A stretch of DNA of 64,000 nt from a virus: positions 1 through 64,000 of IMG/VR virus record IMGVR_UViG_3300032053_000041; one strand, given 5' to 3'. Within the stretch, counting starts at the first letter, position 1. Each line of letters starts with the position of its first letter. Below the pieces are notes generated by a model. The model ran no database searches and was not told where the DNA came from. It was given only the letters and a program-made list of their open reading frames with translations. Made by a program: the position numbers and the translations under genes. Positions 2,509 through 24,859 of this stretch are shown here, piece after piece.

Positions 2509-2762
2509 GCCGCAACCATCTCGTCGAGCGCCGCCTTCAGGGCGTTCACACGATCCTGCGTGCGGTTCACGTCCTCTTGCTCGCCGAGTGCGAGTTTCAC
2601 CTGCAGGCCCTCGCGCGAGATTTCGACATGCGAGATGTCGAACTTCCTCGTCGCGAGCAGCGCGAGCACCGCGCGCCTGATCTCGCCCTGGCCCCAGCGG
2701 CTCGACCACCACCAAGGCGTGACGTCACTGATGAGAGAATGTCCCGAGTACTGCTTGCTCAT
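2505..2762 (-). CDS. hypothetical protein
   Basis: AGGAGG RBS; first gene after a sigma70-like promoter. Confidence 0.55.
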   Translation of the reverse strand: MSKQYSGHSLISDVTPWWWSSRWGQGEIRRAVLALLATRKFDISHVEISREGLQVKLALGEQEDVNRTQDRVNALKAALDEMVAA

Positions 2763-2774
2763 GTTGTTCCAGTT

Positions 2775-2816
2775 CCTCCTGGCTAGCCAGTATGGGAACC
2801 GAAACGATTACGTCAA
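2775..2816 (-). promoter_or_regulatory. sigma70-like promoter (TTGACG-N16-CATACT) with GCTAGC site
   Basis: Minus-strand TTGACG at 2816-2811 and CATACT at 2794-2789; 15-mer CCTCCTGGCTAGCCA is identical to 14195-14209. Confidence 0.5.
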
Positions 2817-2884
2817 CACAAGAAAGTCAAGCGTACATGCCTACGTCATTTTGTTTGCGCGAGCATGTGTCGCGAGTGAGCGGA

Positions 2885-3529
2885 CTACTTCTTGAGCATC
2901 GCGCGGGCGGCGGCGAGCACGTCGCTCATCGTGCGCGGGGAAGCGGCGGCGGACGATGCGCTCGCCCGAAGCTGCTGCTCCTCCGGCGCGAGGAGCGCTC
3001 CGACACCCATCATAAAGCGTGTCCCCTTCGCTGCGCCGGCCCACAGGTTGAAAATCCCGATAGCCGCCTGCGGCTGGAACGGAGGCGCGGGGACCGTATC
3101 GAACAACGTCTGCAGCATCGGATCGTACAGCGGAGGCAAGTTCTCTGCGTCGCCGGCCAGTGCAAACTGAAACCGGAAGTTCTCAGGAGCAAGCGAGAGG
3201 TCTGTACCAATCAAGGCAAAAAGCACTGCCAGAAAATTGATCAGCTTCGACACAAACAGGATCTCCAAAACGAACGTGTGTCCGTCGCCGCCACCAGAAA
3301 GAGTCGCGTCGGAGATCCACAGAGCGTAGCTGGGCCCGAGTTTCGCAATAATCTCGACGTTGCGTTCTTGAACGTCAAGCAGAGCCCGCTGAGTGCTGGC
3401 AGCGAGACCATCTGCTGTGGCCGATTGAACAGTCACGAGAAGCTGGCCGCTGGGAGGAAAGGCCGGCGTAGGAACGGGGGGAGGACCGACCAAGGACGGA
3501 TTGACCAGGAGGTTCAGCGAGATCGGCAT
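2885..3529 (-). CDS. GGGDGHTF/AKGTRFM-family protein (paralog 1 of 5), probable virion protein
   Basis: LSGGGDGHTFVLEI ... WAGAAKGTRFMMGV shared with 27825, 34403, 35950, 36424. Confidence 0.7.
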   Translation of the reverse strand: MPISLNLLVNPSLVGPPPVPTPAFPPSGQLLVTVQSATADGLAASTQRALLDVQERNVEIIAKLGPSYALWISDATLSGGGDGHTFVLEILFVSKLINFLAVLFALIGTDLSLAPENFRFQFALAGDAENLPPLYDPMLQTLFDTVPAPPFQPQAAIGIFNLWAGAAKGTRFMMGVGALLAPEEQQLRASASSAAASPRTMSDVLAAARAMLKK

Positions 3530-3560
3530 GCCGAAACAGTGCCAGGACACATGCCTGCAG

Positions 3561-4286
3561 TCAACGCACGCGCGGGCGGACCTCTTTCGCAGCATCTTCG
3601 ATGCTACCGACGATGTCGATGTGCCCCGTCGGGATGGCGTCCGGGCCCCGCGGGTCCCCCTGCCAGGATGTGACCTGCCAGGCGATGCCGGGTCTGGTCG
3701 AGCGCGTGATGGTCTGCCACCCGCCAGGGTAGTCGGTGACCGGATTGGCGTCGGTCACCTGGACGACGTACGCGCCGGTTCGCTCGACCTCGGCGCGGAC
3801 GCGCTCGATGTGCGCTTCGCGCTCGCGGCGCATGCGAGCGATCTGCTCCGCGAAGGTCTCTCGGTCGGCGTTCGCGACGAGCTTACCCGTCCCCCCCGCG
3901 ACCTTCAGCGTTCCCTCGTACCGCACCGAGCCCACGCCGTCGTACGAGACGCGCCAGGCCGTCCTTGGAACGTCGATGTAGCCGCGCACGATCCATTCCG
4001 GGTGTTTGCGCCCAGCCTCTTCCCACGCCTCGTCACGCTCTTCCTCGCTCGCCATCACAGGTTCGTCCATCGCGGCACCGTCGTACCGCAACGCTCGCGT
4101 GTTTTTCAGCGAGACCTTCAGCACAAGCTCTTCGCCGCCATGAGCCTCAACCGCCTCCTCCGCGTAATACTCCGCCAGTTCTGGCTCGGCTGCCAGGTAC
4201 GGATCGCGTAGGCCGTCACGCTCGATCTCGTCGGCAAAGACGGTGGACGTGCCGTGGTACAGCGTGAGTGTGCGCGCGGGGTTCAC
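3561..4286 (-). CDS. ADP-ribosyltransferase-fold protein plus C-terminal domain
   Basis: LYHGTS...IERDGL..PYLA...AEYYA resembles ART/Tpt1-like NAD-binding motifs. Confidence 0.6.
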   Translation of the reverse strand: MNPARTLTLYHGTSTVFADEIERDGLRDPYLAAEPELAEYYAEEAVEAHGGEELVLKVSLKNTRALRYDGAAMDEPVMASEEERDEAWEEAGRKHPEWIVRGYIDVPRTAWRVSYDGVGSVRYEGTLKVAGGTGKLVANADRETFAEQIARMRREREAHIERVRAEVERTGAYVVQVTDANPVTDYPGGWQTITRSTRPGIAWQVTSWQGDPRGPDAIPTGHIDIVGSIEDAAKEVRPRVR

Positions 4287-4606
4287 GACATCCTCGTCGC
4301 GAGTTTAGCAAGCCGCGCCGGGCTCGGAGAGTACGCCCACATGATCAGCGCCAGGTGCCTGCGCGTCGGCACGCCGTCCTGCCAGAGCGGCTCTCCATGC
4401 GCCTTCACCTGCGCCATGTGTCGAGCCACGAAGTTGTCTCGCTTCCGCGCCCAGTGCTCCGACAGCCGATTCGGCTCTCCGCTGGCACGCCGGTACGCCG
4501 TCATAAACCCGCGAGGGCTTCGCGCCACGACCGACACGCCGAGCTTCCTGGCCGCGGACATGTACTGGTCGATGAGCCGGAGGCTCAGGTAGCGCGGGCT
4601 GCTCAC
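4283..4606 (-). CDS. basic hypothetical protein
   Basis: Coupled ORF; GVSVVARSPRGF...RDNFVARH...PTRRHLALIMWAYSP. Confidence 0.65.
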   Translation of the reverse strand: MSSPRYLSLRLIDQYMSAARKLGVSVVARSPRGFMTAYRRASGEPNRLSEHWARKRDNFVARHMAQVKAHGEPLWQDGVPTRRHLALIMWAYSPSPARLAKLATRMS

Positions 4607-5820
4607 AGCGCCTCCCTCCCGTTCTCGACCAGAATCTGCTCGATGTCCTTCCCGCCCGCCGTCGGCGTGTGGCCCGGATCGAAGATCACGATGCGGTCCC
4701 AGTCGTCGGCGTCGCGGGCGATGTGCCAGCCGATATTCAGCAGGTGCACGTCACGGAGGTAGACGCCGTTCGAGGCAAGCATTGAGAGAGACTCACCGAG
4801 CGGCGCGAAGGCGCTGCCGCTGAAGTGTCGATCGAGTCGCGAGATGTACTCCTCGATCGATTCCAGTGACGAGAACGATGGAGAGCCCCACGCGCTCGTG
4901 TCCTCTCCTCGTTTACGTCTGTGCCACGCCTGCGCCGCAAGGCGGTACCTATCGAGCCCCTCGATCGCGCGGGAGAAGTCCCCGTACTGTGCGCTCGGGC
5001 CATACGCCGGAGCATCGACAGGAAGCCCCAGCTTGTCCAACGTGTACTGACTGAAGCGCAGTCCCTTCCGATCGTTCACGAACACCGGTTCGATCCCCTC
5101 CCTCACGATCGCCCAGACCTTCTTCTTCCGTCCACCGTACGGGATGTCCGGCGTGATCCGGTGCAGGCTCTTGATCTCTGGGAAGCCCCCGTCGCCGTAT
5201 CGCTCCTCGTCGAGCAGTCCCTTGATCTTCGACCAGATCGGTCCCTCCGTCGGATCGATCGAGAGCTTCACGACCCACGGCGGCGTGCTCTCGAACACGC
5301 AGCCCCAGTGGCCGCAGCCGAGCATCGTGCCGAGCGGCATACCGATGGCCTTCTCGATCTTGTCGCGCTTCGTGAGCAGCTGCTCGACCCACGCCTTCTT
5401 GCGGACGTTCGCGTTCAACGGTCGCGTAGAAAAGCCGCCGCGAGGTATTCCAACCTGAGCAGCCATCCCTTCCGTCACAGGCCACGCGCCCAGTTTCGTA
5501 GATCCAGATCGCTTGCACTCGTCGAGCGCCGCGAGCACGAGCATCTCTGACAATCCTCGCTTCCGGTACTCAGGCAGGATTCCGAGTGCGGTTACTTCGC
5601 ACGTTTCATACCCCCAGACATCTCTGTCCGAGGCGTCTTTGTCGTAGAGCCATAGCGTCGCGGCGCCGACCATCTTTCCGTCAACGAACAGACCGAGCGC
5701 CTTGCTCGTCGTCTGCAGCAGCAGGCCCTCGCTTTCTACCCAGAGACCTCCTTCTCCATCGCCGAGAAAGCGAGACGCTTCCTCGGCGTCGATCGGTACT
5801 ACTTCAACCGCGGGGATCAC
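4603..5820 (-). CDS. GNAT acetyltransferase - protein kinase-like fusion
   Basis: N-terminal LGILPEYRKRGLSEML (GNAT motif A); C-terminal LGCGHWGCVF, VVKL, DVHLLNI, IFDPG (kinase G-loop, Lys, catalytic loop, DFG-like). Confidence 0.75.
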   Translation of the reverse strand: MIPAVEVVPIDAEEASRFLGDGEGGLWVESEGLLLQTTSKALGLFVDGKMVGAATLWLYDKDASDRDVWGYETCEVTALGILPEYRKRGLSEMLVLAALDECKRSGSTKLGAWPVTEGMAAQVGIPRGGFSTRPLNANVRKKAWVEQLLTKRDKIEKAIGMPLGTMLGCGHWGCVFESTPPWVVKLSIDPTEGPIWSKIKGLLDEERYGDGGFPEIKSLHRITPDIPYGGRKKKVWAIVREGIEPVFVNDRKGLRFSQYTLDKLGLPVDAPAYGPSAQYGDFSRAIEGLDRYRLAAQAWHRRKRGEDTSAWGSPSFSSLESIEEYISRLDRHFSGSAFAPLGESLSMLASNGVYLRDVHLLNIGWHIARDADDWDRIVIFDPGHTPTAGGKDIEQILVENGREAL

Positions 5821-6554
5821 TGCGGAACGACCTTGCAGTTCTTCCCGTAGAGGCTGAAGAGGATGTAGTAAACCTCGTCCGGTGAGGCGGTGCGCGGAAC
5901 TTTCGCGCTCGGGTGAGAGAAGTCCACGATGATTCCGTCGTAGCCGAGCATGCTCAGCAGATGACTCTTCAGGCGCCCACGCTCCCGTGCCGCTGCCACC
6001 TCCTCCGAGGATGCGTCAGGGAACAAGCTCGTTGCGGCTGACAGAGCCCACTTCATCACTTTCTCCATCGGTGACCAGGACTCCTTCACTTTATCGCTCG
6101 TGCCGATGTACTCGTCAGGGCCGGACAAGTACGCGAAGTAGTCCACGGGATTCTGAAGTGTGATGTCGCAGGCGATAATCTGTCCGCCGTCTTGCGCAAA
6201 CTTCCTCGCGCCAAACTCCTTGGACGTGAAGTAGATCCCAGGACCGTAGCTTCCCTCCATCGGATACGCCCTCTCAGGAGCGAAGGCGCGGGCGCTGCCG
6301 TGGTAGACGGCGCGATTCTCTTCGTACTCCTCGCCGTGTTCCTCCAGCCAATCCCGCGTCTGCACCATGAGCGCCGCGGCATGTGCCGCGAGCATCGCGT
6401 CGCCCGGCTCCACCCCGTCCTCGACCATGGCTTCGATGACGTCGTCTGGCTCGACACCGGAGACCGAGAGCGCGGCGGCAGCCCGATCGATCAGGTCGTC
6501 GATGTCGCTCCGGGCGTAGTGATCCGTCACGGCAGATCCGCTAGGTTGTCCCAT
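5817..6554 (-). CDS. ADP-ribosyltransferase-like protein (polyvalent-protein ART type)
   Basis: VYHGS, GSYGPGIYFTS, ARKFA, ITLQNP, LGYDGII, YYILF; start position uncertain. Confidence 0.7.
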   Translation of the reverse strand: MGQPSGSAVTDHYARSDIDDLIDRAAAALSVSGVEPDDVIEAMVEDGVEPGDAMLAAHAAALMVQTRDWLEEHGEEYEENRAVYHGSARAFAPERAYPMEGSYGPGIYFTSKEFGARKFAQDGGQIIACDITLQNPVDYFAYLSGPDEYIGTSDKVKESWSPMEKVMKWALSAATSLFPDASSEEVAAARERGRLKSHLLSMLGYDGIIVDFSHPSAKVPRTASPDEVYYILFSLYGKNCKVVPQ

Positions 6555-7525
6555 CCGGACGCTTCTCGGATCTCCGCCGCTTGCTCCACGGCTTCCATCG
6601 CCTCGTGCGCGGCCGCGCTGTTCGGCTTGAACGGCAACACGATCTGCGGCACCGGCATCGACGGATCGATCTGGCGCTCCCAGCGATACCGTAGGTTCGA
6701 CAGATCCTGATCGCTGAGCCCGGCGCTCTGCCCGATGAGGCCGAGCAGGTTGATTGCGTCGAGCGTGAATCCGCGCACGTCGAGACCGAGGATCCAGAGC
6801 GGATACGCCTCATGGATCCCGTCTCGCTGCAGTGCTTGCCACAAGCCAGCCGGTTCGGAGTGCGTAAACGTAGCCGTGAACGACGCGATGATCAGATTGT
6901 GCTTGAGAGCGCTCTCCCACGTGTAGACGTCCACGGTCATGATCTTCTCGACATCCACATCGATCGTGTTCACGTGCGTGATGTTGCCACCATCGTATTC
7001 TTGGTCCTCGATCCGGTAGGAGTACTCCCTCGTGACGTCCACTCCTTCGTCCGTCTCTTCGTGCTCCTCCGATGCGACGAGCTTCCGCCGTCGCGCAGCG
7101 CTCCACCAAGCCTCGGCTTCTTCGGATCGGGTCCCCTCCATCGAGGAGATCCCGTCACCGGTCGGGCCGTACGACCCTATCTTGTACCGGTCGCGTTCCC
7201 CTTGCTCGTTCCACTCGTGGTTCTGGTGCGCCCCAAGACAGAGTGCCGTGTACAGCGATGTGCCGTAGCCCATCCCCTCTGTCTCGACGCGGTTCCGTCT
7301 CAGCGCTCGTCGCGGGCCACGATTCGGGGTGTGCGACCGAGGCAGGCCAGTGATCGACGATCCGGAATCCTCCCCGTAATACCCATCGCCCAGGTATTCC
7401 CATTCCTGATCCTCCCCGTCCTCGCCCACGGTCGGGAACGCTCTGATGTTGATGTGGCCTCCATCGGCCACCACGAGCACGGGCACCTTCAGCTTCGGGT
7501 TGATGACGACGCCGAGAGCGATCAT
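6527..7525 (-). CDS. GNAT-like NPKL/LGLDVR-family protein (paralog 1 of 3)
   Basis: GVVINPKL, GMGYGTSLY, RSEEAEAWW, ILGLDVR, LRYRWE shared with 31401 and 33001. Confidence 0.7.
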   Translation of the reverse strand: MIALGVVINPKLKVPVLVVADGGHINIRAFPTVGEDGEDQEWEYLGDGYYGEDSGSSITGLPRSHTPNRGPRRALRRNRVETEGMGYGTSLYTALCLGAHQNHEWNEQGERDRYKIGSYGPTGDGISSMEGTRSEEAEAWWSAARRRKLVASEEHEETDEGVDVTREYSYRIEDQEYDGGNITHVNTIDVDVEKIMTVDVYTWESALKHNLIIASFTATFTHSEPAGLWQALQRDGIHEAYPLWILGLDVRGFTLDAINLLGLIGQSAGLSDQDLSNLRYRWERQIDPSMPVPQIVLPFKPNSAAAHEAMEAVEQAAEIREASGWDNLADLP

Positions 7526-16641: not shown

Positions 16642-17299
16642 CGTCGATCTCGGTTCCCTGAAGGAGCAGATGCTCTCGCTCGACGCGCCGATCTCGCAGG
16701 TGCAGGACTTCCTGCAGAAGAAGCTGAAGCCGCACCGGAAGCAGGTGTCCGTGGTGCGCTTCGCAAGCGGGCGTCTCGAAGAGCTTTCCGAGGCGACGCT
16801 GCAGGTCATCGACGGCACCGCGGAGGATGTGCCTGGGACGGTCGTGGAGGCTCAGGCGGTGGAGCCGGTCGTGGAGAAGAAGGAGAAGCCGGCACCCAGG
16901 AAGGAGGACAAGCCCGCGGTGGCGGCGACGGTGGGGCAGCCGGCGCTCGGGTGCCCGGTACCGGAGTTCGACGAGGTCGAGATCCGGGCGACACGTGTCC
17001 TCAAAGCGTTCCTGACGCCGGAGCAGGTGGAGGACTTCGACCGGAGGCAGCAGTTCGTGGCCGTCGGCGCGGACACAGGCCACAGGTACCTGCTCACGTC
17101 GCGGCAGTCGCGGCACGCCTTCGAGCGGGCGAGCTTCCGATCGCTCTACGACATGGATGAGAGGCAGGCGCTCTGCGTACATGACTGGGAGGTCCCCGCG
17201 GCCGAGGAGCTTCTTGGGCTTTATCTGCATGTGTCCCTGCCGGGACTGGAGGGCTTCGTTCGGTCCATGCCGGACCGAGACGGGGTGCTGCACCGGTGA
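16439..17299 (+). CDS. hypothetical protein
   Basis: AGGAG RBS; strong GC3 codon bias. Confidence 0.75.
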   Translation: MHKPQNFTWYLPSMYGDIKLEKITDKSTRLTLVGLSPTEKEAVKALFARAVKPGAFKKVWTSETALRDVDLGSLKEQMLSLDAPISQVQDFLQKKLKPHRKQVSVVRFASGRLEELSEATLQVIDGTAEDVPGTVVEAQAVEPVVEKKEKPAPRKEDKPAVAATVGQPALGCPVPEFDEVEIRATRVLKAFLTPEQVEDFDRRQQFVAVGADTGHRYLLTSRQSRHAFERASFRSLYDMDERQALCVHDWEVPAAEELLGLYLHVSLPGLEGFVRSMPDRDGVLHR

Positions 17300-17673
17300 G
17301 CGACGAATCCGTCCCGCAGATGTTGCACAATGCCCTCGCGCTGCTCAATCGCGAGTTTCCAGCCGCCAAGCTCGTCGAGGTCCGCTTGGAGTTCCGTAGC
17401 GGTGAGCGTCACGGCGCGACGTACGGCTGCGCACAAAACTGGACCAACGAACCGACCTGGACGCTACAGGTCAATAACGACCGCGAGTCCCATTCTGTGC
17501 TGAGTGAAGCGCTCGCCGTGCTTCGGGTAAAGCTCGCTCGCAAGGCGCAGGTGCCTGGGCTCGCCGATCGCGTCGCGACCATCCTTCGCGAGATCCCGGA
17601 CGAGGGGTTCGAGAGGAATGACGTGCTCATGGCCGCGCAGGTGATGCTGGAGAAGGAGCGCAGCGGACGATGA
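17296..17673 (+). CDS. hypothetical protein
   Basis: GTGA-coupled to the previous gene. Confidence 0.6.
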   Translation: MSDESVPQMLHNALALLNREFPAAKLVEVRLEFRSGERHGATYGCAQNWTNEPTWTLQVNNDRESHSVLSEALAVLRVKLARKAQVPGLADRVATILREIPDEGFERNDVLMAAQVMLEKERSGR

Positions 17674-17747
17674 ACCGAGAGTCGCTGGTCGTCGCTGGTT
17701 GTCTTCTCCTCTGCTGGTTCTTTGGCTTCGCGTGCGGAAAGGCGTAG

Positions 17748-17957
17748 GTGGCTGGAATGAAGCCCGACGCGGAACAGATTACGGAGCCGGTGACTATCAC
17801 GCCGCCCGAGCCACCTTGGGTCGAGCCGTGCATGGCGTGCTCGCGGCCCATGCGATGCGACAAAGGACCGTCTGCGCTCTGGTGCTGGCGTTGCCGTTGT
17901 CGCTCGTGGCTAGGTGTCAGAGTCAGGAGCACACTCAGAGTCAGGAGCACACGATGA
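17748..17957 (+). CDS. small Cys-rich protein ending at the first cassette core
   Basis: CxxC...CxxCxC; its TGA is the TGA of the core at 17955. Confidence 0.5.
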   Translation: MAGMKPDAEQITEPVTITPPEPPWVEPCMACSRPMRCDKGPSALWCWRCRCRSWLGVRVRSTLRVRSTR

Positions 17958-18247
17958 AGCAAGGCACTCAGTCGGATAATTCAGGGGCGAGCTACCTGGA
18001 TACGGAGAACGGCACGGTGCAGAACCTCGTCTACTGGCTCCGCGATCCGCTGGACGAGGAGACGCTGGCGGTGCTGTGCAGAGTAGAGCGCGGCACCCAG
18101 GGATTCAGGCGCGATCGGTTGAACGTGGCGTACCTTGTGAGCCGCGACTGCATCACGGCCGACTGCAACGCCGAGACGCTCGCGATCACGCCTACCGGTA
18201 GGGATGCTCTGGCATATTTCGGTGGAGAGAACAGGGCTCGTAGATGA
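17954..18247 (+). CDS. cassette 1 protein, wHTH-like
   Basis: Starts MKQ at a core and stops at the next core; YLVSRDCI...ITPTGRDAL. Confidence 0.6.
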   Translation: MKQGTQSDNSGASYLDTENGTVQNLVYWLRDPLDEETLAVLCRVERGTQGFRRDRLNVAYLVSRDCITADCNAETLAITPTGRDALAYFGGENRARR

Positions 18248-18287
18248 AGCACGGTTGCACGGTAGATCCAACGGAACGGAGCATGTG

Positions 18288-18704
18288 ATGGCAGATCCCA
18301 AAGAGAACGCGCCGGTCGATTCTGAAGCGGTGGACCCGGGAACCCTGACGCTCTACCGGGCGCAGAGCGAGCAGCCGTGGACGGTGCCATATGGAAAGAA
18401 CAAGTGGTGGGTGGTGAGCGAAGAGGGCCGTCTGAAGCACTGCCTGTCGCACGCTCAGAAGACGCTCGGGAAGATCGCTGCCATCGTCGAGAGCTTGGAC
18501 CACGCGGACCGAGGCTGGCTCACCGACGATGAGTGCGATCAGGTGGGCGACATGGCTGCGGACCTCGTAACGGTCGCGCTACAGGTGGGCACGACGGTTT
18601 CGCGCAGCGTCGCTCACGCCCTCGTCCGTCGCGTCGTCGCTAAGAACGGCAAGCTGTTCGATCTGACCGGAGGAACCTATGGCCGTGCGCTCATCTGCAA
18701 GTGA
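18288..18704 (+). CDS. cassette 2 protein, MazG-like all-helical NTP pyrophosphohydrolase fold (tentative)
   Basis: HCLSHAQKTLGKIAAIVESLDH...GDMAADLVTVAL; preceded by 14-codon leader MKHGCTVDPTERSM*. Confidence 0.5.
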   Translation: MADPKENAPVDSEAVDPGTLTLYRAQSEQPWTVPYGKNKWWVVSEEGRLKHCLSHAQKTLGKIAAIVESLDHADRGWLTDDECDQVGDMAADLVTVALQVGTTVSRSVAHALVRRVVAKNGKLFDLTGGTYGRALICK

Positions 18705-18791
18705 ACCGAAGGTGAGCGGGACACGTTCAGCGGACTCCCGCTCGGCAATGAAGCACGGATGCACGGCAGACCACGCGGAACGGAGCATGTG

Positions 18792-19163
18792 ATGGCAGAT
18801 CCAAACGAGATGGGTACGGAGTCGGTGGTTTCCGGAGCCGCGGGGCCGGTCGATTCTGACGAGCCAAAGTCGCTGTGGACCGTTGTTGGGCTGTACGAAC
18901 GGGGCAAGTACAACCGAGACACGTTCGTTTGCTACCTGAGCGGAATCACCGCGGAAGAAGCAAAGCGTTTTGCCGAAGAGGGCAACGCGGCACGTGGTGA
19001 CAAGATAGAAGTGCTAGCGTGCGTCGCAGGGGGCGGTGTCGCTCACGTGTTTCAGCGTGCGGCCAGCCGATGCACATGCACGCCGTACAACCCGGAGCAT
19101 GATTGTCCTGAGCACGGTCTTCAGGTGAGCGGGACTGAGAACGGATCGGAGGCTCGCAGATGA
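18792..19163 (+). CDS. cassette 3 protein
   Basis: Same leader type as cassette 2 (MKHGCTADHAERSM*); CTC...DCPEH; stops at a core. Confidence 0.6.
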   Translation: MADPNEMGTESVVSGAAGPVDSDEPKSLWTVVGLYERGKYNRDTFVCYLSGITAEEAKRFAEEGNAARGDKIEVLACVAGGGVAHVFQRAASRCTCTPYNPEHDCPEHGLQVSGTENGSEARR

Positions 19164-19215
19164 AGCATCCCCGAATCAGAAACCGTGCTCAGCGGAGCAC
19201 GAGAGAGGCAATCCG

Positions 19216-19452
19216 GTGACCTCGGAACGATCGGCGCGCGCGCTCAAGTGGCTCGACGATAGGTACGAGACTCGTTCCGCAGAGGAGCGACAAGCGATAC
19301 TTCGGTTGGAGCCTGCTATCTTGGCGATGTTGGTTGGGCATCATGCGCTAGGGGGCTTCGCCAGTGATGAAGCTCCAGCCATGGTCAACATAGTTCGTAT
19401 CTGGTTGGAAACGAAGGTGAGCGCATCCGAAAAGACCCCGGTGCAACCGTGA
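19216..19452 (+). CDS. cassette 4 protein
   Basis: Follows a 19-codon leader; ends EKTPVQP* at a core. Confidence 0.55.
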   Translation: MTSERSARALKWLDDRYETRSAEERQAILRLEPAILAMLVGHHALGGFASDEAPAMVNIVRIWLETKVSASEKTPVQP

Positions 19453-19652
19453 AGCAATCGAAGAAACTGATTGAGGTACACTCAGATCCGCGAACCTGTC
19501 TCTGCGGATGGGTCAGACCGGTGCGAGCCGGGTTCGCAAAAGACGAGATGGGAAACGAACCGATCGAGGTTCCAGAAAAACGGTTCTACTTTCTCTATGA
19601 CTGCCCGCAGTGCGGCGCGCGGTGGAACATGCTTCTGGAACGGGTGGATTAG
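19449..19652 (+). CDS. cassette 5 zinc-ribbon protein (copy A)
   Basis: CLCG...YDCPQCG; near-identical to 20552..20755. Confidence 0.7.
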   Translation: MKQSKKLIEVHSDPRTCLCGWVRPVRAGFAKDEMGNEPIEVPEKRFYFLYDCPQCGARWNMLLERVD

Positions 19653-19710
19653 GGAGCAACCGTGAAGCAACGTGTGTCGGAAACTACCCCAACAAGAAAG
19701 AGGCGATTCG

Positions 19711-20037
19711 TTGACCAAGAATCCGTTGTCGAAGCTCTACGGTGAGTGCCTCGTTGATCGAGCCGGCTCCCTTGAGGCTCGGGGGAAGGATCTTTTGATG
19801 AGTGAAGTTCGTGAGCGGGCGTTCGCGGAGTTCCTACGCCGCCATAACGATACGCTCGTAGCACTGGTGGCGACGCTCCCGAAGTGCGCTCGGGGCTGTC
19901 GCCGTCTGGCTACCACGACGGACGGTGACGGGACGTACCACTGCGATCCTCATCGACCGCCGCGTGAACTTACGGTCAGCGTGGACCTGCCGTGGGCGAA
20001 GCTAGTTCGGGAAGAAAAGATTCCGGTGCAACCGTGA
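19711..20037 (+). CDS. cassette 6 protein
   Basis: TTG start after AAAGAGG; CxxxC...CxxH; ends EKIPVQP* at a core. Confidence 0.55.
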   Translation: MTKNPLSKLYGECLVDRAGSLEARGKDLLMSEVRERAFAEFLRRHNDTLVALVATLPKCARGCRRLATTTDGDGTYHCDPHRPPRELTVSVDLPWAKLVREEKIPVQP

Positions 20038-20156
20038 AGCATCTTGCAGACTGGATTCTTGACCAAGCCTCGCTGCTCGTGCCGTGCCTGTTCGCCGGGG
20101 CGTTCGTCGCTCTGATAGGTGGCGAGGTGTACGACCGAATCAGGGAGCAACCGTGA
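20034..20156 (+). CDS. cassette 7, 40-aa membrane peptide
   Basis: MKHLADWILDQASLLVPCLFAGAFVALIGGEVYDRIREQP*, running exactly core-to-core. Confidence 0.55.
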   Translation: MKHLADWILDQASLLVPCLFAGAFVALIGGEVYDRIREQP

Positions 20157-20208
20157 AGCAGCAGGTACCGGCTGTCCGCAACGACCCCGACACGAAGGAG
20201 ACAATCCG

Positions 20209-20376
20209 ATGAACCAGAAAACGAAGAAGTGCCGCGAAGAGCACCCGATCCTCTGCATCGACCCGGCGGGCGAGATTCCTCTTCGGTGCGGACTCCCGAA
20301 GGGCCACGGGGGGCTGCACGAGGACGAGCGAGAAACGGATGGCGCGAAGCCAGAGAAGACGGAGCCCGCGCCGTGA
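20209..20376 (+). CDS. cassette 8 protein, C-x-L-x-x-GH-x-G-x-H
   Basis: AAGGAG RBS in a 19-codon leader homologous to that of cassette 4; stops at a core. Confidence 0.55.
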   Translation: MNQKTKKCREEHPILCIDPAGEIPLRCGLPKGHGGLHEDERETDGAKPEKTEPAP

Positions 20377-20555
20377 AGCATCCTCGCCCCACCATCTCGG
20401 AACCCGCAGTTCTGAACTACGTGGTCTTTCACGCCGCCGATTGCCGCCGACTGCTCGACAAGTGGTGCCCGTGCGGCTGCGGAGCCGAGCAGCGAGCGCG
20501 AGACGCTCTCTATCGAGCGGTGGACGGATGCTCAGACACTAGGAGACAACCATGA
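20373..20555 (+). CDS. cassette 9 Cys-rich protein
   Basis: MKH start; HxxDC...CPCGCG; core-to-core. Confidence 0.55.
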   Translation: MKHPRPTISEPAVLNYVVFHAADCRRLLDKWCPCGCGAEQRARDALYRAVDGCSDTRRQP

Positions 20556-20755
20556 AGCAACCGAAGATACTGATTGAGGTACACTCAGATCCGCGAACCT
20601 GTCTCTGCGGATGGGTCCGACCGGTGCGAGCCGGGTTCGCAAAAGACGAGATGGGAAACGAACCGATCGAGGTTCCAGAGACACGGTTCTATTTTCTCTA
20701 TGACTGCCCGCAGTGCGGCGCTCGGTGGAACATGCTTCTGGAACGGGTGGATTAG
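20552..20755 (+). CDS. cassette 10 zinc-ribbon protein (copy B of cassette 5)
   Basis: Differs from copy A at 3 of 67 aa. Confidence 0.7.
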   Translation: MKQPKILIEVHSDPRTCLCGWVRPVRAGFAKDEMGNEPIEVPETRFYFLYDCPQCGARWNMLLERVD

Positions 20756-20764
20756 GCGGCACCC

Positions 20765-20974
20765 GTGAAGCAGCATGACCAACCGAAGCCGCTCGTGCAC
20801 TGGTGCGTGTTCAACGACGGGGAGCCGGTGTGCGGGGCGAAGATGCCGGAGCCGCCGACGAGAAAGCCGTTCTCGTGGCCCGACCACTACCCGCGGGTGG
20901 CGACGTCTCAGAAATATGTGACGTGCGAAGCCTGCAAGGAGCACTGCGCCGGTCCGAACAAGGCGAACCGGTGA
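20765..20974 (+). CDS. cassette 11 zinc-finger protein
   Basis: MKQ start at the last core; VH...PVCG...VTCEAC. Confidence 0.6.
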   Translation: MKQHDQPKPLVHWCVFNDGEPVCGAKMPEPPTRKPFSWPDHYPRVATSQKYVTCEACKEHCAGPNKANR

Positions 20975-20992
20975 GCAAGAAGGAAGAGGAAC

Positions 20993-21196
20993 ATGAAGTT
21001 CAGTGAAGTGATCGCGGCGCTGGAGGACGGGAAGAAGGTCAGGCAGTCCGGCATCGAGGGAGACTACTACCAGTTGGTCTCGCCGGGTCAGGGACTGAAT
21101 CGCCAGTTGGTGTACGTGTATCAAGACGGCAGCTGGGAGAACGCGGAACTCAGATTCAGCGGTCACATGCGCAACGACTGGTCGGTGGTCGAGTGA
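20993..21196 (+). CDS. small protein resembling DUF2829/Tad2-type phage proteins (tentative)
   Basis: MKFSEVIAALEDGKKVRQ...NDWSVVE matches the remembered family ends MxFxEAL..LK.GKKV.R ... DW.IV. Confidence 0.45.
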   Translation: MKFSEVIAALEDGKKVRQSGIEGDYYQLVSPGQGLNRQLVYVYQDGSWENAELRFSGHMRNDWSVVE

Positions 21197-21471
21197 CGCA
21201 CAAGGCGTGGAACGTGGTCGTCATCGAAACGGAGCCGGAGACGGCGTGCGCGCGGTGCAAGAACAAGAAGGAGTGCCGCGACGTACTCGGTGATGGCACG
21301 AAGCTGTGCTTCAGCTGCGCAACGTCGGCTGAGAAGGAAGCGTACGGACGTCGGATGTTCGGGTCGCCTTCCACCGGCTTGCGCGAGACAGCCGACCGTC
21401 TCTTCGATGGCCTGAATGACAAGGAGAAGGAACTCGTCAAACGTAGGTTCGCCAAGAGGGAGGGGAAGTAG
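21193..21471 (+). CDS. zinc-finger protein
   Basis: CARC...LCFSC. Confidence 0.6.
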   Translation: MTHKAWNVVVIETEPETACARCKNKKECRDVLGDGTKLCFSCATSAEKEAYGRRMFGSPSTGLRETADRLFDGLNDKEKELVKRRFAKREGK

Positions 21472-22272
21472 ATGAGCAGCACCGGTCGCGGCAGCGAGCG
21501 CGAGGAGAACGACGTCTACCTGACGCGCTACCCGCTCGCGCTCGCGATCTGCGAGAAGCTGAAGGCCGACGGCGTCATCGTCGCGCCGAGCGTGATGATG
21601 GAGCCGAGCGCGGGGGGAGGCTCCTTCGTCAGTGCGATGGCCGAGACATGGGCCCCGCGAACGCTGTACTGCAACGACCTCAACAGCGGTCTGATCTTGC
21701 CGGAGCACGAGGACCGTGCCCGGTTCTGCATCGAGCGCGCCCACCTGGGCCGTCACGAGAGCCACGGCAAGCTGATCTCGCTGGAGGGCGACTTCCTGCA
21801 GATCGAGCAGCGGAATGTGCCTGGGATCCAGGCCATCGTGGGCAATCCGCCATTCACCTTCGCGGAGCAGCATGTCCGTCATGCGATCTCGCTGCTTGCC
21901 CCTGGTGGAGCGCTCGCCTTCCTCCTTCCTGTGAACTTCCTCTCGGGCATCAAGCGTGTCGGCGGGCTCTATCGGGAGCACCCGCCCGAGTACGTGTACG
22001 TGATCGACAAGCGCCCGCAGTTCGTGGACGGCTACCGGATCAACAAGCACGGCAAGCGCGTGAAGAAGGGGACCGACTCGAACGAGTACGGCGTCTTCGT
22101 GTGGAGGAAAGAGCGCCCCGAATTTGAACCAGTGATCCGGTGGCTTCAGTGGTCGAAGTACTTGCAGAGGTTCAAGAACAAAGTCGAGAGGGTCGAGATC
22201 CAGGTAGGACAGAACGTGGACACGGACGACGAGGACGTGGCAGGCTCCGCGACCGCAGGAGAGACAGAATGA
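21472..22272 (+). CDS. DNA N6-adenine methyltransferase
   Basis: SAM motif MEPSAGGGSF precedes catalytic GNPPF. Confidence 0.88.
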   Translation: MSSTGRGSEREENDVYLTRYPLALAICEKLKADGVIVAPSVMMEPSAGGGSFVSAMAETWAPRTLYCNDLNSGLILPEHEDRARFCIERAHLGRHESHGKLISLEGDFLQIEQRNVPGIQAIVGNPPFTFAEQHVRHAISLLAPGGALAFLLPVNFLSGIKRVGGLYREHPPEYVYVIDKRPQFVDGYRINKHGKRVKKGTDSNEYGVFVWRKERPEFEPVIRWLQWSKYLQRFKNKVERVEIQVGQNVDTDDEDVAGSATAGETE

Positions 22273-23111
22273 ACCGACGACTTATCGCGTTGCTGCTTTC
22301 GCTCACGCTCGTTCTCGGAATACATGCCGCCGCCGCTGACCAGCGGAGTGGTCTGGAGCGCTGGCTATTCGCGACGGCGAACAAGCTGGAGCACTCATCG
22401 GCTCCAGGCGAAACGCGAGAGGACTACGAACGGCGGCTCGGTGGCATGTCCGCCGCGCTCGCTCGCGCCACGAAGCCCTACGCGAACGGGCAGGGCTGGA
22501 CGACGACCGAGCTAGGACTCGCGATGCTGACGCTGTGGCACGCGGAGACGTTGTTTGATCAGCGTGTCCACGCTGGTATGCAGCACCCGAAGTGGACCCA
22601 GGACAAGGGGCGCGCCCGGTGCCTTGGTCAGATCCACGTCTCGCTCCTTGTGCCGCAGTCGGAATGGGAGAAGCTGGTCGGAACGGACGAGGGAGCGACG
22701 CAGATGTGCGCAGATGCAACGGCCCGGATCTGGGTTGCGCAGGCCCGGCAGTGCGGCGTCTGGTACGGTCAGCGAGCCGATCGGAACAAGGTAGCGAAGG
22801 TCTTCGCGGCCTACGCGAGCGGCGGCAACTGCCGCCCCGGAGAGCGCGACTGGGCGCGAGCAGACAAGTGGTTGGCCGGCATCGCGCAGCGACCGGATCG
22901 GAGCCCGGTGAAGGGCTATCGCCGGGCGGCCCCTGCCGAGATCCCGTCGAATGTGAAGGAGGACGCTCGAACGCTTGCGACCGAACTCGCTCCTCCCGGT
23001 GGCCACAAAGTCGGCGCGCAGTTTCCCGTGTGGGGCTCGTTTCTGTTGCTTGTCGAGAAGCACGCCGAGGGCAAACTCGGAGTTTCCGTTCTGATGAAGG
23101 AGAGCACGTAA
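22269..23111 (+). CDS. secreted lysozyme/transglycosylase-like protein
   Basis: Signal peptide; HAETLFD...DKGRARCLGQIH...AAYASG resembles SLT motifs. Confidence 0.55.
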   Translation: MNRRLIALLLSLTLVLGIHAAAADQRSGLERWLFATANKLEHSSAPGETREDYERRLGGMSAALARATKPYANGQGWTTTELGLAMLTLWHAETLFDQRVHAGMQHPKWTQDKGRARCLGQIHVSLLVPQSEWEKLVGTDEGATQMCADATARIWVAQARQCGVWYGQRADRNKVAKVFAAYASGGNCRPGERDWARADKWLAGIAQRPDRSPVKGYRRAAPAEIPSNVKEDARTLATELAPPGGHKVGAQFPVWGSFLLLVEKHAEGKLGVSVLMKEST

Positions 23112-23317
23112 TGTCACCCGAGAAGGCCGCGAAGAGGCACCCGCACTGCGGCGTGGAAGGGCACGGACCGGCACATCGGTTCGACGCGATCGACTGCTAC
23201 GCCTGTATGGAGTGCGACGAGTGGCTCGAAGAGAAGTGCACCGAACCGGACTGTGCCTTCTGCAAGCAGCGCCCGGCTCGCCCGCCAGCGCCCGGCGCGG
23301 CCTCGTCACCTCCGTGA
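23111..23317 (+). CDS. small Cys-rich protein
   Basis: ACMECDEWLEEKCTEPDCAFC. Confidence 0.55.
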   Translation: MSPEKAAKRHPHCGVEGHGPAHRFDAIDCYACMECDEWLEEKCTEPDCAFCKQRPARPPAPGAASSPP

Positions 23318-23441
23318 GTCTCCTGTGCCGCAGGGCCTCCGAGCGCACTGATCGGCGCCGCGATCCCGGCCATCGCCTCCGGTTTTAGCGCAGAAACGCC
23401 CCTCCTTCCCACGGGCATACGATCGGGCTAGACTACGGCAC

Positions 23442-23972
23442 ATGTTCGGCAACGCCCCCAGCGTCTTCGACAACGTCGCCCCAGAACACAGGCCGGACTC
23501 CTCGGGTCCTCCTCTACATGATCAGATCGCCGGGGTTGGCGCAAGCCCGGACGGTCTCGGGGCCGGTCCGGGCGGCATGGGCGCGTACGCTCGACCGACG
23601 GCCGGGACCGGCGAGTACTTCGTGCCGGCAGACGGCATGGGCGCGTACGCCAGGCCCACCGGGATGGGCGGACAGATCGATTTCTTGGAGCCGGCCGATG
23701 CGTCCCCTGCCGCGGCGATGCGCTCGGCGGGCATCACGGCGCTCGTGGCGGCCGTTGCTTTCGGTGGCGGGCTCGCGTTCGGCGGCCCATGGGGCGGCGT
23801 GTCCGGGATCATGGTCTCGGGCTCGGCATTCAACGTGTACCGCGCCCAGAAGTGGTGGGGCAGCGCGGACGCGAGCGAGAAGCACGAGGCCGTCGTGAGC
23901 GCGATGTTCGCGGCCATCGGCATCGCTGCTGGCGGGTACACCGCGTACCAGGCGTACCAGGCGAAGCGGTAG
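23442..23972 (+). CDS. membrane protein with GMGAY repeats, probable virion component
   Basis: GMGAYARPT twice; 2-3 hydrophobic helices. Confidence 0.7.
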   Translation: MFGNAPSVFDNVAPEHRPDSSGPPLHDQIAGVGASPDGLGAGPGGMGAYARPTAGTGEYFVPADGMGAYARPTGMGGQIDFLEPADASPAAAMRSAGITALVAAVAFGGGLAFGGPWGGVSGIMVSGSAFNVYRAQKWWGSADASEKHEAVVSAMFAAIGIAAGGYTAYQAYQAKR

Positions 23973-23980
23973 GAGCACAC

Positions 23981-24859
23981 ATGGCAGGCGATGCGGCCCC
24001 GTCCGGGGCAACGATGGTCGACGCGCAGCTGACGAACGTGCGGGTGCTCAAGCCCGCGCCGAACTTCGAGCGGAACTACCAGGGCAAGTCAGCGATCATC
24101 CCCATCGCTTTCCCAGGGACACGTGATCCTCGTGCGGAAGAGAGCGCGCCCGGCTTCTCTCCGAATCTGATGAAGGGCATCGCGGTTCCGCAAGGCGCGA
24201 GGGTGCTCCTCCAGTTCCCGATCTGCTGGGCACCGCTCGGTACTTTCCCGAACGCGGTCAACCCCTTTCAGTTCTACAGCTACCGCCTCATCTGGCGGTA
24301 CCAGAACCTCAACAGCTACAGGAACCCGGCCGCAAAGACGCGCCGAGCCCCGTACCACTTTCCCAGGCAGAGCCCTGGAGCGCCGGAGACAATCCTGGGC
24401 GTTCCTGTGCCCCGCGTGACCATTCCTGCGTCCTGGCATGTGGTTGCGTACCAGCAGACGGAACCGCTCACAGGTGCTGGCAGTCTCGTTGTCCGAATCG
24501 AGGACATCATTCCGCGGTTGGATTCGGTCGCGGATTTCGTGCAGCCTCTGCTGCCCGACGGACAACCCGGCGTCATTCAGCAGGGCGTCCTTGATCCGAC
24601 CGCGACCGGGGGCGGACAGATGCCGATCTTCGCGCCCTTCTGGACAGACGCAGAGGGTGACGAACTGCTCATCCTCGCGAAACGTGTCGGGGCCACTGCC
24701 CTTCCTGGGGACGTCTGGGACTTCACGAGCGGGTACAACGGCGTGTCTCCGCCACCGCAGGGAGACCTCGCCTTCTCGAACATCTACGGCACGGGCGACG
24801 GGCGGCACGAGTCGTTCCGCGACCTCGGTATCTACATGCAGACCGGGACGACGCCCTGA
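23981..24859 (+). CDS. probable virion structural protein
   Basis: AGGAG RBS; Pro/Gly/aromatic beta-rich composition. Confidence 0.65.
   Translation: MAGDAAPSGATMVDAQLTNVRVLKPAPNFERNYQGKSAIIPIAFPGTRDPRAEESAPGFSPNLMKGIAVPQGARVLLQFPICWAPLGTFPNAVNPFQFYSYRLIWRYQNLNSYRNPAAKTRRAPYHFPRQSPGAPETILGVPVPRVTIPASWHVVAYQQTEPLTGAGSLVVRIEDIIPRLDSVADFVQPLLPDGQPGVIQQGVLDPTATGGGQMPIFAPFWTDAEGDELLILAKRVGATALPGDVWDFTSGYNGVSPPPQGDLAFSNIYGTGDGRHESFRDLGIYMQTGTTP

Follow-up and report, generated by a model that had tools for sequence, protein, structure and literature searches.

The arms that flank the short core TGAAGCA in a sediment phage are best explained as parts of two kinds of translational junction, which belong to a hypervariable array of small accessory genes, and not as the halves of one recombinase site; the probability of this reading is put at roughly 65%. 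The core belongs to an octamer, RTGAAGCA, in which RTG opens the next open reading frame (ORF), the overlapping TGA closes the previous one and AAG CA follows. In junctions of the GTG class, the left arm GTGCAACCG would be a ribosome-binding site and would serve at the same time as the C-terminal codons of the gene 5′ of it. For the ATG class, the sequence 3′ of the octamer would encode a leader, M-K-H-G-C-T, and CGGWTGCAC within it would supply a further ATG or TTG in the frame of the cargo. Such junction modules may relay ribosomes down one long transcript as a natural bicistronic leader design, and the sequences shared by the junctions (octamer, linker and leader families) may be recombination points that reshuffle cassettes, comparable to the PeSL motifs of T4-like phages.

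The octamer array and its cargo

The window, that is, the whole stretch of DNA analysed, comprises 64,000 nucleotides of an IMG/VR record; this record, a virus contig of 76,228 bp from a sediment phage, is 56% complete. The array and the gene that follows it are located as follows.

17954..20772, plus strand: array of 11 RTGAAGCA junctions, each a start codon overlapping TGA and then AAG CA
17954, 18244, 18748, 19160 and 20552 (first bases), plus strand: ATG-type octamers
19449, 19662, 20034, 20153, 20373 and 20765 (first bases), plus strand: GTG-type octamers
20993..21196, plus strand: first gene 3′ of the array (g12), starting ATGAAGTT, with a borderline Tad2-like match

The octamer occurs 14 times in the window, compared with an expected 2.55, and 11 of the 14 copies lie on the plus strand within 2.8 kb, at 17954–20772. 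Outside the array the counts are at chance level, and the motif is essentially missing from the remainder of the phage. A close relative, L005, has no array; the segment 17673–21192 of the window corresponds there to 546 bp with two ordinary genes, the left flank of this slot being 97% identical and the right flank 81%. The array-bearing family consists of high-GC sediment phages of roughly 100–140 kb, and a complete array-bearing genome, G005, has 94 kb. A blastn search with positions 17000–24000 of the window against 50,697 phage records gave no match, and a search for relatives using the 266-aa protein encoded 3′ of the array (21472–22272) found none. A scan of genome contigs for CGGTGCAACCGTGAAGCA returned 20 single matches in unrelated taxa and no arrays; these matches look like chance and give no host or prophage.

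Searches of the cargo proteins against Pfam and PHROGs yielded a match of g2 to phrog_27761, the function of which is not known, and nothing else apart from the matches of g12. The latter protein resembles PF11195 (Tad2, Thoeris anti-defence) with E = 3.1e-5 and 24.9 bits, at a cut-off of 25, and also matches phrog_1048. The array cargo is a set of ORFan genes, possibly with roles in anti-defence. A scan of 13.5–23.5 kb detected no promoter-like sites, and the seven terminator-like sites in the same interval represent no excess over the 5.6 found in shuffles.

Across the array regions, 135 exact octamers are located on the coding strand and two on the opposite strand. A frame of at least 25 codons closes at the core TGA upstream of 110 of 133 array sites, and a Shine–Dalgarno-like tetramer is present at −15 to −5 at 105 of the 133, compared with 20% of random positions. 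ATG sites lie 5′ of GTG sites in 116 ordered pairs, as against 14 in the reverse order. The octamer itself is almost invariant, with flanking sequence conserved at the family level only, and its one-mismatch variants at AAGC are at background level. This sharpness counts against the preferred reading: the octamer is much sharper than usual translation signals, and the invariance of AAGCA is unexplained by translation alone.

In a profile of 103 sites, conservation at +15 to +24 is contiguous and non-periodic, a pattern that points to selection on nucleotides; the third-codon wobble position carries no information. RNAalifold, applied to 103 anchored sites as a whole and per class, returned no consensus structure (an open chain). 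The sequence ATGAAGCAC resembles the old "downstream box", ATGAATCAC; this similarity carries no weight.

A regulator that recognises the octamer would account for the invariant AAGCA. According to this proposal, which is improbable, the octamer and its flanks form the operator of a translational regulator with sequence specificity, which could be a protein or a small RNA, and the arms are the class context; T4 RegA is the protein-type comparison. The motif lies exactly on the initiation codons of a co-transcribed accessory block and is at chance level elsewhere, and the conservation at +15 to +24 together with the uninformative wobble position also speaks for an operator. No candidate regulator has been identified, however, and the cassette boundaries at the octamer are not accounted for by an operator alone. 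The proposal is, moreover, compatible with translational junctions and not exclusive of them.

Two classes of junction and their leader cistrons

The arms, the linker motif and the leaders of the window are listed below.

19441..19449, with an identical copy at 20026–20034, plus strand: left arm GTGCAACCG, the final codons P-V-Q-P-stop of the upstream ORF
19654..19662, also 20145–20153, plus strand: left arm GAGCAACCG, made up of GGAG (Shine–Dalgarno), the spacer CAACC and the G of GTG
18252..18260, plus strand: right arm CGGTTGCAC, codons 3–6 of the leader M-K-H-G-C-T, with TTG 18255 in the cargo frame
18756..18764, plus strand: right arm CGGATGCAC in the paralogous leader, with ATG 18759 opening a 134-codon cargo frame (ORF 18759..19163)
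18711..18718, also 19124–19131 and 19416–19423, plus strand: linker motif GGTGAGCG, about 25–40 nt 5′ of cores
18244..18288, plus strand: 14-codon leader mini-ORF ending in a TGA whose A is also the first base of cargo g2 (18288–18704, ATG start)
18748–18792, plus strand: paralogous leader, 5′ of g3 (18792–19163)
19160..19219, plus strand: 19-codon leader mini-ORF, its stop overlapping the GTG of g4 (19216–19452) as GTGA, with AGAGG upstream
19662..19745, plus strand: 27-codon leader ORF with the usual TTGA out of frame
20153..20212, plus strand: 19-codon leader mini-ORF, its stop overlapping the ATG of g8 (20209–20376) as ATGA, with AAGGAG upstream

Junctions of the GTG class have, in the 20 bases 5′ of the octamer, an A-rich tract, a Shine–Dalgarno-like GGTG or GGAG and the spacer CAACC. 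The arm GTGCAACCG is composed of the Shine–Dalgarno-like GGTG, the 5-nt spacer CAACC and the G of GTG. The motif GGTGAGCG opens a conserved linker, the end of which is the left arm; positions 6537–6598 of another locus, L089, match 18708–18769 of the window at 87%.

In the ATG class, the right arm CGGWTGCAC corresponds to codons 3–6 of the conserved leader, and its ambiguous base, A or T, creates a second ATG or TTG. A search for CGGNTG(C/T)AC that left N free found A or T at this position in all 27 distinct sites (21 ATG, 6 TTG), and the left arm GTGCAACC at none of them. The usual right arm in the wider collection is CGGATGCAC, the 8/9 variant, by the same 21 to 6.

Mini-ORFs of at most 30 codons begin at 48 of 129 sites, about a third; 20 of the 48 have exactly 19 codons, the commonest length, and leaders of 14, 15, 19, 24 or 25 codons are found in the arrays. 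In 43 of the 48, the mini-ORF stop and a start codon overlap, as NTGA or TGATG, and a Shine–Dalgarno-like tetramer precedes the stop by 5–16 nt in 42. In the window, GGAG stands 7 nt 5′ of the g2 ATG (18288). The leader at 19160..19219 is 82–85% identical in L015 and L039, where it is followed by other cargo, and that at 20153..20212 is 78–79% identical in L033 and L042. The 27-codon leader has the motif AGAGGnGATTCnTTGACCAAG in common with L033 and L039; cargo g6 probably starts here at TTG 19711, with AAGAGG 5′ of it, and runs to 20037.

The layout of these leaders is that of the bicistronic design (BCD) used in engineered expression, in which a short first cistron bearing a ribosome-binding site contains an internal second Shine–Dalgarno sequence and ends in a stop that overlaps the start of the target gene (PMC5995908, PMC8601185). 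The array leaders likewise have a short ORF with its own ribosome-binding site, an internal Shine–Dalgarno sequence and a stop/start overlap. Unlike the synthetic constructs, they are natural, repeated and serial within one phage operon, and their translational coupling is inferred from sequence.

Symmetry of the arms and candidate recombinases

An earlier note on this DNA had proposed that the arms reconstitute a palindrome around the core, with the architecture of a loxP or att core (9-bp inverted arms and a 7-bp overlap). Its reading of the letters is accurate. GTGCAACCG stands immediately 5′ of TGAAGCA at 19450 and 20035, GAGCAACCG immediately 5′ of it at 19663 and 20154, and CGGTTGCAC and CGGATGCAC follow the cores at 18245 and 18749, respectively. 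In agreement with the note, no junction has both perfect arms (within-site complementarity is 0–5/9 over the 11 window sites), an A is found at −15 in nine of the 11 sites and at −16 in the remaining two, and the three left-arm classes are present.

The complementarity between arms of different sites in the window is real and mildly unusual, but does not generalise. When right arms drawn at random from the phage were compared with the nine distinct left arms, a 9/9 match arose in 0.1% of 20,000 trials and one of at least 8/9 in 2.6%, for a single geometry picked after the fact. On window data alone, a chance of about 0.001 for that geometry makes coincidence uncomfortable. A repeat finder listed the arm pair (I7: 19 nt, 84%) as one of 94 inverted pairs in 3.1 kb, and others of the 94 equal it in length or complementarity.

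The larger collection of sites speaks against the proposed architecture. None of 135 sites from 27 arrays of related phages is symmetric, the maximum being 5/9 and the mean 1.9; a lack of inverted symmetry in such a collection is the very outcome that the note had named as refuting its model. Mean within-site complementarity, 2.0/9 in the comparison between sites, is lower than the between-site value of 2.5, and none of 2000 random left/right re-pairings had a mean as low as that observed within sites; the sites had been gathered using the arm motifs themselves, an ascertainment that inflates the between-site scores. Circularised single cassettes, in which the left arm of one junction is joined to the right arm of the preceding one (L[i+1] × R[i]), reach at most 6/9, and none is symmetric. 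The full palindrome GNGCAACCRTGAAGCACGGWTGCNC has no match in 241 million metagenome records, in which the half-site occurs at least 120 times. Among 149 distinct right arms that follow the GTGCAACC-core in metagenome contigs, none is CGGWTGCAC, and in IMG/VR no locus has both half-patterns at one site and the full palindrome is missing.

The two halves of the palindrome belong to two different types of gene-start junction and never meet at one site. A complementary pair appears only on combining arms of different sites, because ATG-class junctions lie 5′ of GTG-class junctions. The complementarity of the arms is most likely coincidental.

The same arms could pair as RNA. The leader sequence CACGGWUGCAC of an ATG-class junction (5′) would then anneal to the ribosome-binding site and start GUGCAACCGUG of a GTG-class junction (3′) on the same mRNA, and would delay or gate translation. 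The duplex is predicted at −18.8 kcal/mol with the T variant and at −14.5 with the A variant, the two classes follow one another 5′ to 3′ on what looks like a single transcript, and such a duplex would hide both the Shine–Dalgarno sequence and the start codon. Against this, covariation is lacking, and right-arm variants such as CGGATGTAC (L030, L042) have no left-arm counterpart. Of the 15 IMG/VR contigs that carry the right-arm motif, ten lack an exact left-arm motif, many GTGCAACC arrays (for example, L033, L036 and L039) have no CGGWTGCAC site, and the commoner A variant places an A–A mismatch in the middle of the helix. Pairing of this kind is very unlikely.

The model of the earlier note also required a tyrosine recombinase, of which the junctions would be attL/attR-like hybrid products. 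The phage does encode a Phage_integrase domain, within a 1432-aa ORF at 64932–69230 of the record, 45 kb from the array; it is the only tyrosine recombinase of the record. In two related genomes the domain is part of open frames of 1279 aa (G001) and 1251 aa (G002); G004 has tyrosine recombinases of ordinary size only, and the complete array-bearing genome G005 has no Pfam tyrosine recombinase. The giant recombinase was considered as a partner of the array, but its position and presence are inconsistent between genomes. Searches of the 76-kb record (56% complete) with Resolvase found no serine recombinase, and those with RecT, ERF and AAA_24 (Sak4-type) no single-strand-annealing recombinase. 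The latter result counts against the preferred reading, although negatives from so incomplete a record carry little weight. No recombinase domain occurs in the genes on either side of the array.

The loxP-type model has in its favour the 9/9 cross-site complementarity, the integrase domain, and the facts that the arms are independent and that cassettes are mobile as units. It is nonetheless close to refuted by the larger site collection, and is the least probable account of the arms: the sites lack symmetry, circularised cassettes fail to rebuild a site, the full site is missing from IMG/VR and metagenomes, and recombinases are inconsistently present. The dominant right arm is, in addition, the mismatched A variant, and its variable base is confined to A and T, which is what a start codon demands. 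One part of the proposal holds, namely that the arms assort independently and the junctions are recombinant, as seen in the cassette at 18747–19167 with its unrelated flanks and in joints of metagenome contigs; the loxP-type site is not supported. The palindrome claim can be dropped, which avoids a false annotation as a "loxP-like site".

Exchange of cassettes and comparable systems

Whole cassettes are swapped between phages, with their boundaries at the octamer. Two cassettes of the window illustrate their mobility.

18747..19167, plus strand: cassette g3 together with the core at either end; identity to L089:5822–6242 is 98.1% over 421 nt
19449..19661, plus strand: cassette g5, a 67-aa Cys-rich ORF, with a core-to-core duplicate (g10) at 20552–20764 that has different neighbours

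The g3 cassette and its counterpart in L089 have no similarity beyond either core. At the left edge, flanking homology does not extend past the octamer, which is short for ordinary homologous recombination and counts against the preferred reading. Local alignments among arrays start at −10 to +4 from the core and end at +5 to +9 or at the leader end. The stretch is present in 24 sediment runs. Logan contigs of four such runs terminate at the edges of the core and run on into other arms; the joint of 18244 to 20035 has seven core letters in common, and the joints listed are skips and go-backs only, with no strand change. A divergent patch at 19128–19141 in the L089 comparison was considered as a crossover in the GGTG linker, but the same patch is polymorphic in run X14 and is unusable for placement.

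These boundaries could also mean that the octamer is a dedicated crossover site with asymmetric, core-only exchange, similar to an integron in function, or to sfx in having no conserved second arm; the tyrosine recombinases found close to arrays in several of these phages might serve it, and the complementarity of the arms would then be irrelevant. Such a system, built on the stop/start signal, is unlikely, though less so than the other alternatives. It fits the near-invariance of the octamer compared with flanks conserved at the family level, the 98%-identical cassette between two octamers with unrelated flanks, the switch of neighbours exactly at core edges in population variants of the four runs, the common orientation of the cassettes without promoter-like sites, and the tyrosine recombinases about 0.5–5 kb from an array in G001, G002 and G004. 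It is opposed by the lack of an inverse core and of an attC-like hairpin, by the distance of the recombinase here (45 kb) and its absence from G005, and by the perfect start/stop register of the octamer, which is predicted by translation and not by recombination. Breakpoints also occur at leader ends and inside arms, as for homology-driven exchange in junction modules, and selection for intact coupled genes alone would enrich boundaries at the octamer.

Integron arrays (attC × attI, IntI) are composed of promoterless, co-oriented small cassettes with a short conserved core and varying neighbours. The octamer array is likewise promoterless and co-oriented (135 forward and 2 reverse cores), and its neighbours vary, as in L089 and the population variants. 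It differs in having no adjacent divergent intI, a core that is a translational stop/start and arms that are coding sequence; the inverse core TGCTTCA was found within 150 nt upstream at none of 133 sites, and there is no attC hairpin. Inverted sites of the shufflon type (Rci/sfx) were not found, all array sites being direct repeats on one strand. As in loxP and FRT sites, a central sequence of 7–8 bp is common to all sites, but inverted arms are lacking at every one of them, and the palindrome emerges only when arms of separate sites are combined.

The translational-junction reading finds its closest known analogues in the PeSL cassettes of T4 and the start-associated sequences (SAS) of mycobacteriophages. 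PeSL cassettes of T4-like phages carry a sigma70-like early promoter and a terminator stem-loop (Arbiol et al. 2010, PMC2839356; Comeau et al. 2014, PMC4122927). In both systems, short conserved motifs repeat in a single orientation between small ORFan genes, the region that contains them is hyperplastic and has conserved core genes on either side, and the motif bounds insertions, deletions and replacements between close relatives and is also an expression signal (PMC2839356, PMC4122927). Bounding of this type is met here in L005, which lacks the array between conserved flanks, and in the pile-up of alignment ends at the core. The PeSL motif is transcriptional, whereas the octamer is translational (stop/start overlap, Shine–Dalgarno sequence and leader cistron) and its invariant part has 8 bp only; the promoter and terminator signature of PeSL is absent from the array, with no promoter-like sites, terminators at shuffle level and no fold.

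The SAS of Cluster K mycobacteriophages is a 13-bp sequence, GGGATAGGAGCCC, located 3–7 bp 5′ of the start, to which the ESAS adds 17-bp inverted repeats (Pope et al. 2011, PMC3203893). Like the octamer, it is an asymmetric repeat in one orientation at the starts of non-structural genes, includes a Shine–Dalgarno core and is kept before unrelated gene families; its function is not known and a role in translation is suspected (PMC3203893). The octamer, in contrast, spans the start codon plus the five bases after it and overlaps the stop of the preceding frame; leader mini-ORFs come next, and the array is without the 17-bp inverted repeats of the ESAS. The SAS consensus has two matches at two mismatches in this phage (1.5 expected), none of them in the array.

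A family of sediment phages keeps arrays of ORFan genes joined by an exact 8-base stop/start motif and reusable leader cistrons. Crossover at the stop/start signal, if true, would mean that any order of cassettes stays expressed. If the mechanism is solved, it would show how phages keep new genes expressed in any order, would provide a sequence handle for accessory and anti-defence genes in metagenomes, and would represent a natural counterpart of engineered bicistronic expression designs.

Setting of the junction array

The IMG/VR virus record IMGVR_UViG_3300032053_000041 (G000) is 76,228 bp in size, with an estimated completeness of 56% and a G+C content of about 64%; the window is its first 64 kb. 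Up to about 14.1 kb the genes lie on the minus strand and include those of a DnaB helicase, a DnaC-like loader, a replisome organiser and a RuvC-like resolvase; beyond it they lie on the plus strand. The octamer RTGAAGCA occurs 14 times in the whole window (2.55 copies expected), and 11 copies on the plus strand at 17954–20772 form the junctions of an array of small genes (cassettes). In the octamer, the next ORF starts at RTG and the preceding one stops at TGA, giving a four-base overlap, ATGA or GTGA; AAG CAN encodes Lys followed by Gln or His. In a scan of 13.5–23.5 kb, promoter-like sites were absent and terminator-like sites were no more numerous than in shuffles, so the array block looks like a single transcript.

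In the related locus L005, 546 bp with two ordinary genes take the place of the 3.5 kb array, between flanks whose identity to those of the present phage is 97% on the left and 81% on the right. The two closest relatives have contigs that break at or just before the array, L007 starting at about 18068 and L006 ending at about 17301, which fits assembly breaks caused by array heterogeneity. The 67-aa gene directly after the array (20993–21196) matches a Tad2-like (Thoeris anti-defence 2) Pfam entry at the borderline, with 24.9 bits where the cut-off is 25; this hints that the array might be an anti-defence or accessory island. A 266-aa ORF at 21472–22272 has an NPPF motif (IVGNPPF) and no Pfam match at E ≤ 0.01; judged by its motif alone, it may encode a divergent N6-adenine DNA methyltransferase.

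Symmetry of the junction arms

An earlier note proposed that the 9-nt arms flanking the TGAAGCA core, taken from different junctions, reconstitute a palindrome with a loxP/att-core architecture. The arms that it quoted are all present in the window where it placed them. The pair 18242–18260/20026–20044 corresponds to repeat-finder entry I7 (19 nt, 84%), which does not stand out among the 94 inverted pairs listed in 3.1 kb. In a simulation with random right arms, which covers one geometry only, a 9/9 match arises with P = 0.001 and one of at least 8/9 with P = 0.026. Arms of the same junction are complementary at 0–5 of 9 positions in the 11 window junctions.

The IMG/VR collection comprises 43 loci with GTGCAACCRTGAAGCA and 15 with RTGAAGCACGGWTGCAC, many being high-GC contigs with 3–9 octamers on one strand; the phages are distant relatives (about 65–70% identity in DnaB and in the recombinase region). 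None of these loci has both half-patterns at one site. Among 241 million metagenome records, the full palindrome with degenerate outer positions has no match and the left half-site alone has at least 120. Two of the 149 distinct right arms that follow GTGCAACC and the core start with CGG, and none is CGGWTGCAC. Across 135 sites in 27 arrays, same-site complementarity reaches at most 5 of 9, and when each cassette in the same 27 arrays is closed like a circle, its 3′ arm meeting its own 5′ arm, the maximum is 6 of 9. Mean complementarity is 2.0 within sites versus 2.5 for random pairings, with 0 of 2000 random pairings as low. Scores of 7 or more are almost confined to combinations of a downstream left arm and an upstream right arm (26, versus 1 in the reverse control); this excess is due to array polarity, as the ATG-type junction comes before the GTG-type one in 116 ordered pairs and after it in 14. 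No inverse core was found upstream of any of 133 sites, nor any consensus RNA fold across sites. The loxP/att-core architecture is thus not supported. The palindrome is not a site; it is most likely a coincidence across sites of two junction classes.

Translational signals and leader mini-ORFs

The left arm GTGCAACCG is formed by the C-terminal codons of the upstream ORF (P-V-Q-P-stop) and holds GGTG at −9 to −6, the five-base spacer CAACC and the G of GTG; GAGCAACCG has the same layout with GGAG instead. In a position profile of 103 aligned sites from related phages, the octamer is invariant and wobble position +8 is completely free. The profile has an A-rich tract at −19 to −14, which takes in the A at −15 correctly reported earlier for 9 of the 11 window junctions, G-rich positions at −11 to −9, C at −5, ACC at −3 to −1 and a contiguous conserved block at +15 to +24. 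A Shine–Dalgarno-like tetramer is present at −15 to −5 in 105 of 133 sites (20% at random positions), and in 110 of 133 the core TGA closes an upstream frame of 25 codons or more. The motif (A/C)AGGTGAGCG recurs 12–40 nt upstream of octamers, where it opens a conserved linker (18711–18718, 19124–19131 and 19416–19423 in the window, and at many loci); the GTG-class linker encodes a common C-terminal tail of the upstream proteins, of the type K-V-S-A-x-(E/K)-K-T-x-V-Q-P.

The right arm CGGWTGCAC represents codons 3–6 of the leader M-K-H-G-C-T. A search for CGGNTG(C/T)AC with N left free gave 27 distinct sites, none with the left arm GTGCAACC; N is A in 21, T in 6 and nothing else. Either base creates a second start, ATG or TTG, at +11; since 11 mod 3 = 2, as for an NTGA-overlapping start, it lies in the cargo frame. 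The T completing the window palindrome is therefore the minority TTG form of a start codon.

Mini-ORFs of up to 30 codons are opened by 48 of 129 sites; 20 of them are exactly 19 codons long, a sharp peak in the length distribution. Their stop overlaps a start codon (TTGA, ATGA, GTGA or TGATG) in 43 of the 48, and 42 have a Shine–Dalgarno-like tetramer 5–16 nt ahead of the stop. The window examples are as follows.

Leader mini-ORFs in the window
18244–18288, plus strand: leader mini-ORF, stop overlapping a start codon
18748–18792, plus strand: leader mini-ORF, stop overlapping a start codon
19160–19219, plus strand: leader mini-ORF, stop overlapping a start codon
20153–20212, plus strand: leader mini-ORF, stop overlapping a start codon
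Junction 19662, plus strand: usual TTGA out of frame; cargo start AAGAGG...TTGACCAAG still there at 19711

The leaders are 78–85% identical between phages, compared with 65–70% for core genes, and the cargo behind them differs. This layout matches an engineered bicistronic design (PMC5995908); through the leaders, ribosomes would be passed on from one gene to the next. Within the 19-codon leader at 19160 is a small inverted repeat, CGTGCTC ... GAGCACG (19183–19202), shortened to CGTGC/GCACG in the homologous leaders of the related locus L039 and to GTGC...GCAC in L015. The repeat may form a hairpin specific to this family, immediately ahead of the second Shine–Dalgarno sequence.

Cassette exchange and related systems

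The further proposal that the junctions are recombinant hybrids proved right. Window positions 18747–19167 are 98.1% identical to 5822–6242 of the related locus L089, from the first octamer through the end of the next, between unrelated flanks. In four sediment metagenomes, Logan contigs stop at core edges 17953, 18251, 18747, 19167, 20035, 20160 and 20559, exactly where alternative arms start; the joint 18244 → 20035 shares seven core letters. Since joints with short sides may derive from relatives, we read them as cassettes common to co-occurring related phages. Recombination is real, but of a kind other than that proposed. A 14-nt linker patch upstream of the 19160 junction (19128–19141) has eight differences from the otherwise 98%-identical L089 cassette and is polymorphic in sediment run X14 (deletion at 19128, variants at 19131, 19135 and 19137, insertion at 19136); either a small conversion or hypervariability may account for it.

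Translation alone does not explain why the octamer is near-invariant (135 exact coding-strand copies versus 2 on the other strand in array regions, with one-mismatch variants at AAGC at background level), or why the left boundary of the L089 cassette has only 8 bp of shared sequence; a dedicated exchange mechanism using the octamer core only is therefore retained as an unlikely explanation. However, breakpoints fall in leaders and arms too. Local alignments among arrays start at −10 to +4 from the core and finish at +5 to +9 or where the leader ends. An attC-like structure is lacking, and the tyrosine recombinase is 45 kb from the array here; one complete array-bearing genome lacks it, and another has a different kind.

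Just past the window, a 1432-aa ORF (64932–69230 of the record; L067:933–5231) has an N-terminal tyrosine-recombinase unit, with a SAM-like domain at residues 63–111 and a catalytic domain up to residue 533; the remaining ~900 residues have no Pfam match. The same recombinase domain occurs in two array-bearing relatives, in open frames 1279 aa (G001) and 1251 aa (G002) long, 2.5–5 kb downstream of an RTGAAGCA array. The 96-kb genome G004 (L208, L209) has six ATG-type junctions at the record end (94029–95595) and eight GTG-type at the start (2111–5268). Joining its ends, a hypothetical step as no terminal overlap was found, would place a Phage_integrase frame of ~395 codons between the sub-arrays, starting ~35 nt past the last ATGAAGCA.

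Among known systems, the PeSL cassette of T4-like phages is the closest in working: in hyperplastic regions, expression signals repeated between ORFan genes are points of modular exchange (PMC2839356, PMC4122927). PeSLs, however, are promoter–terminator units, whereas the junctions of this array act in translation. In their position, and in being just as enigmatic, the start-associated sequences of Cluster K mycobacteriophages (PMC3203893) come nearest, but their consensus does not occur here above chance. Membership of the integrons, shufflons or loxP systems was rejected, a defining feature of each being lacking. The array is a new variant of 'conserved gene-boundary motif' systems, notable for its exact octamer, fixed-length leader cistrons and visible cassette traffic.
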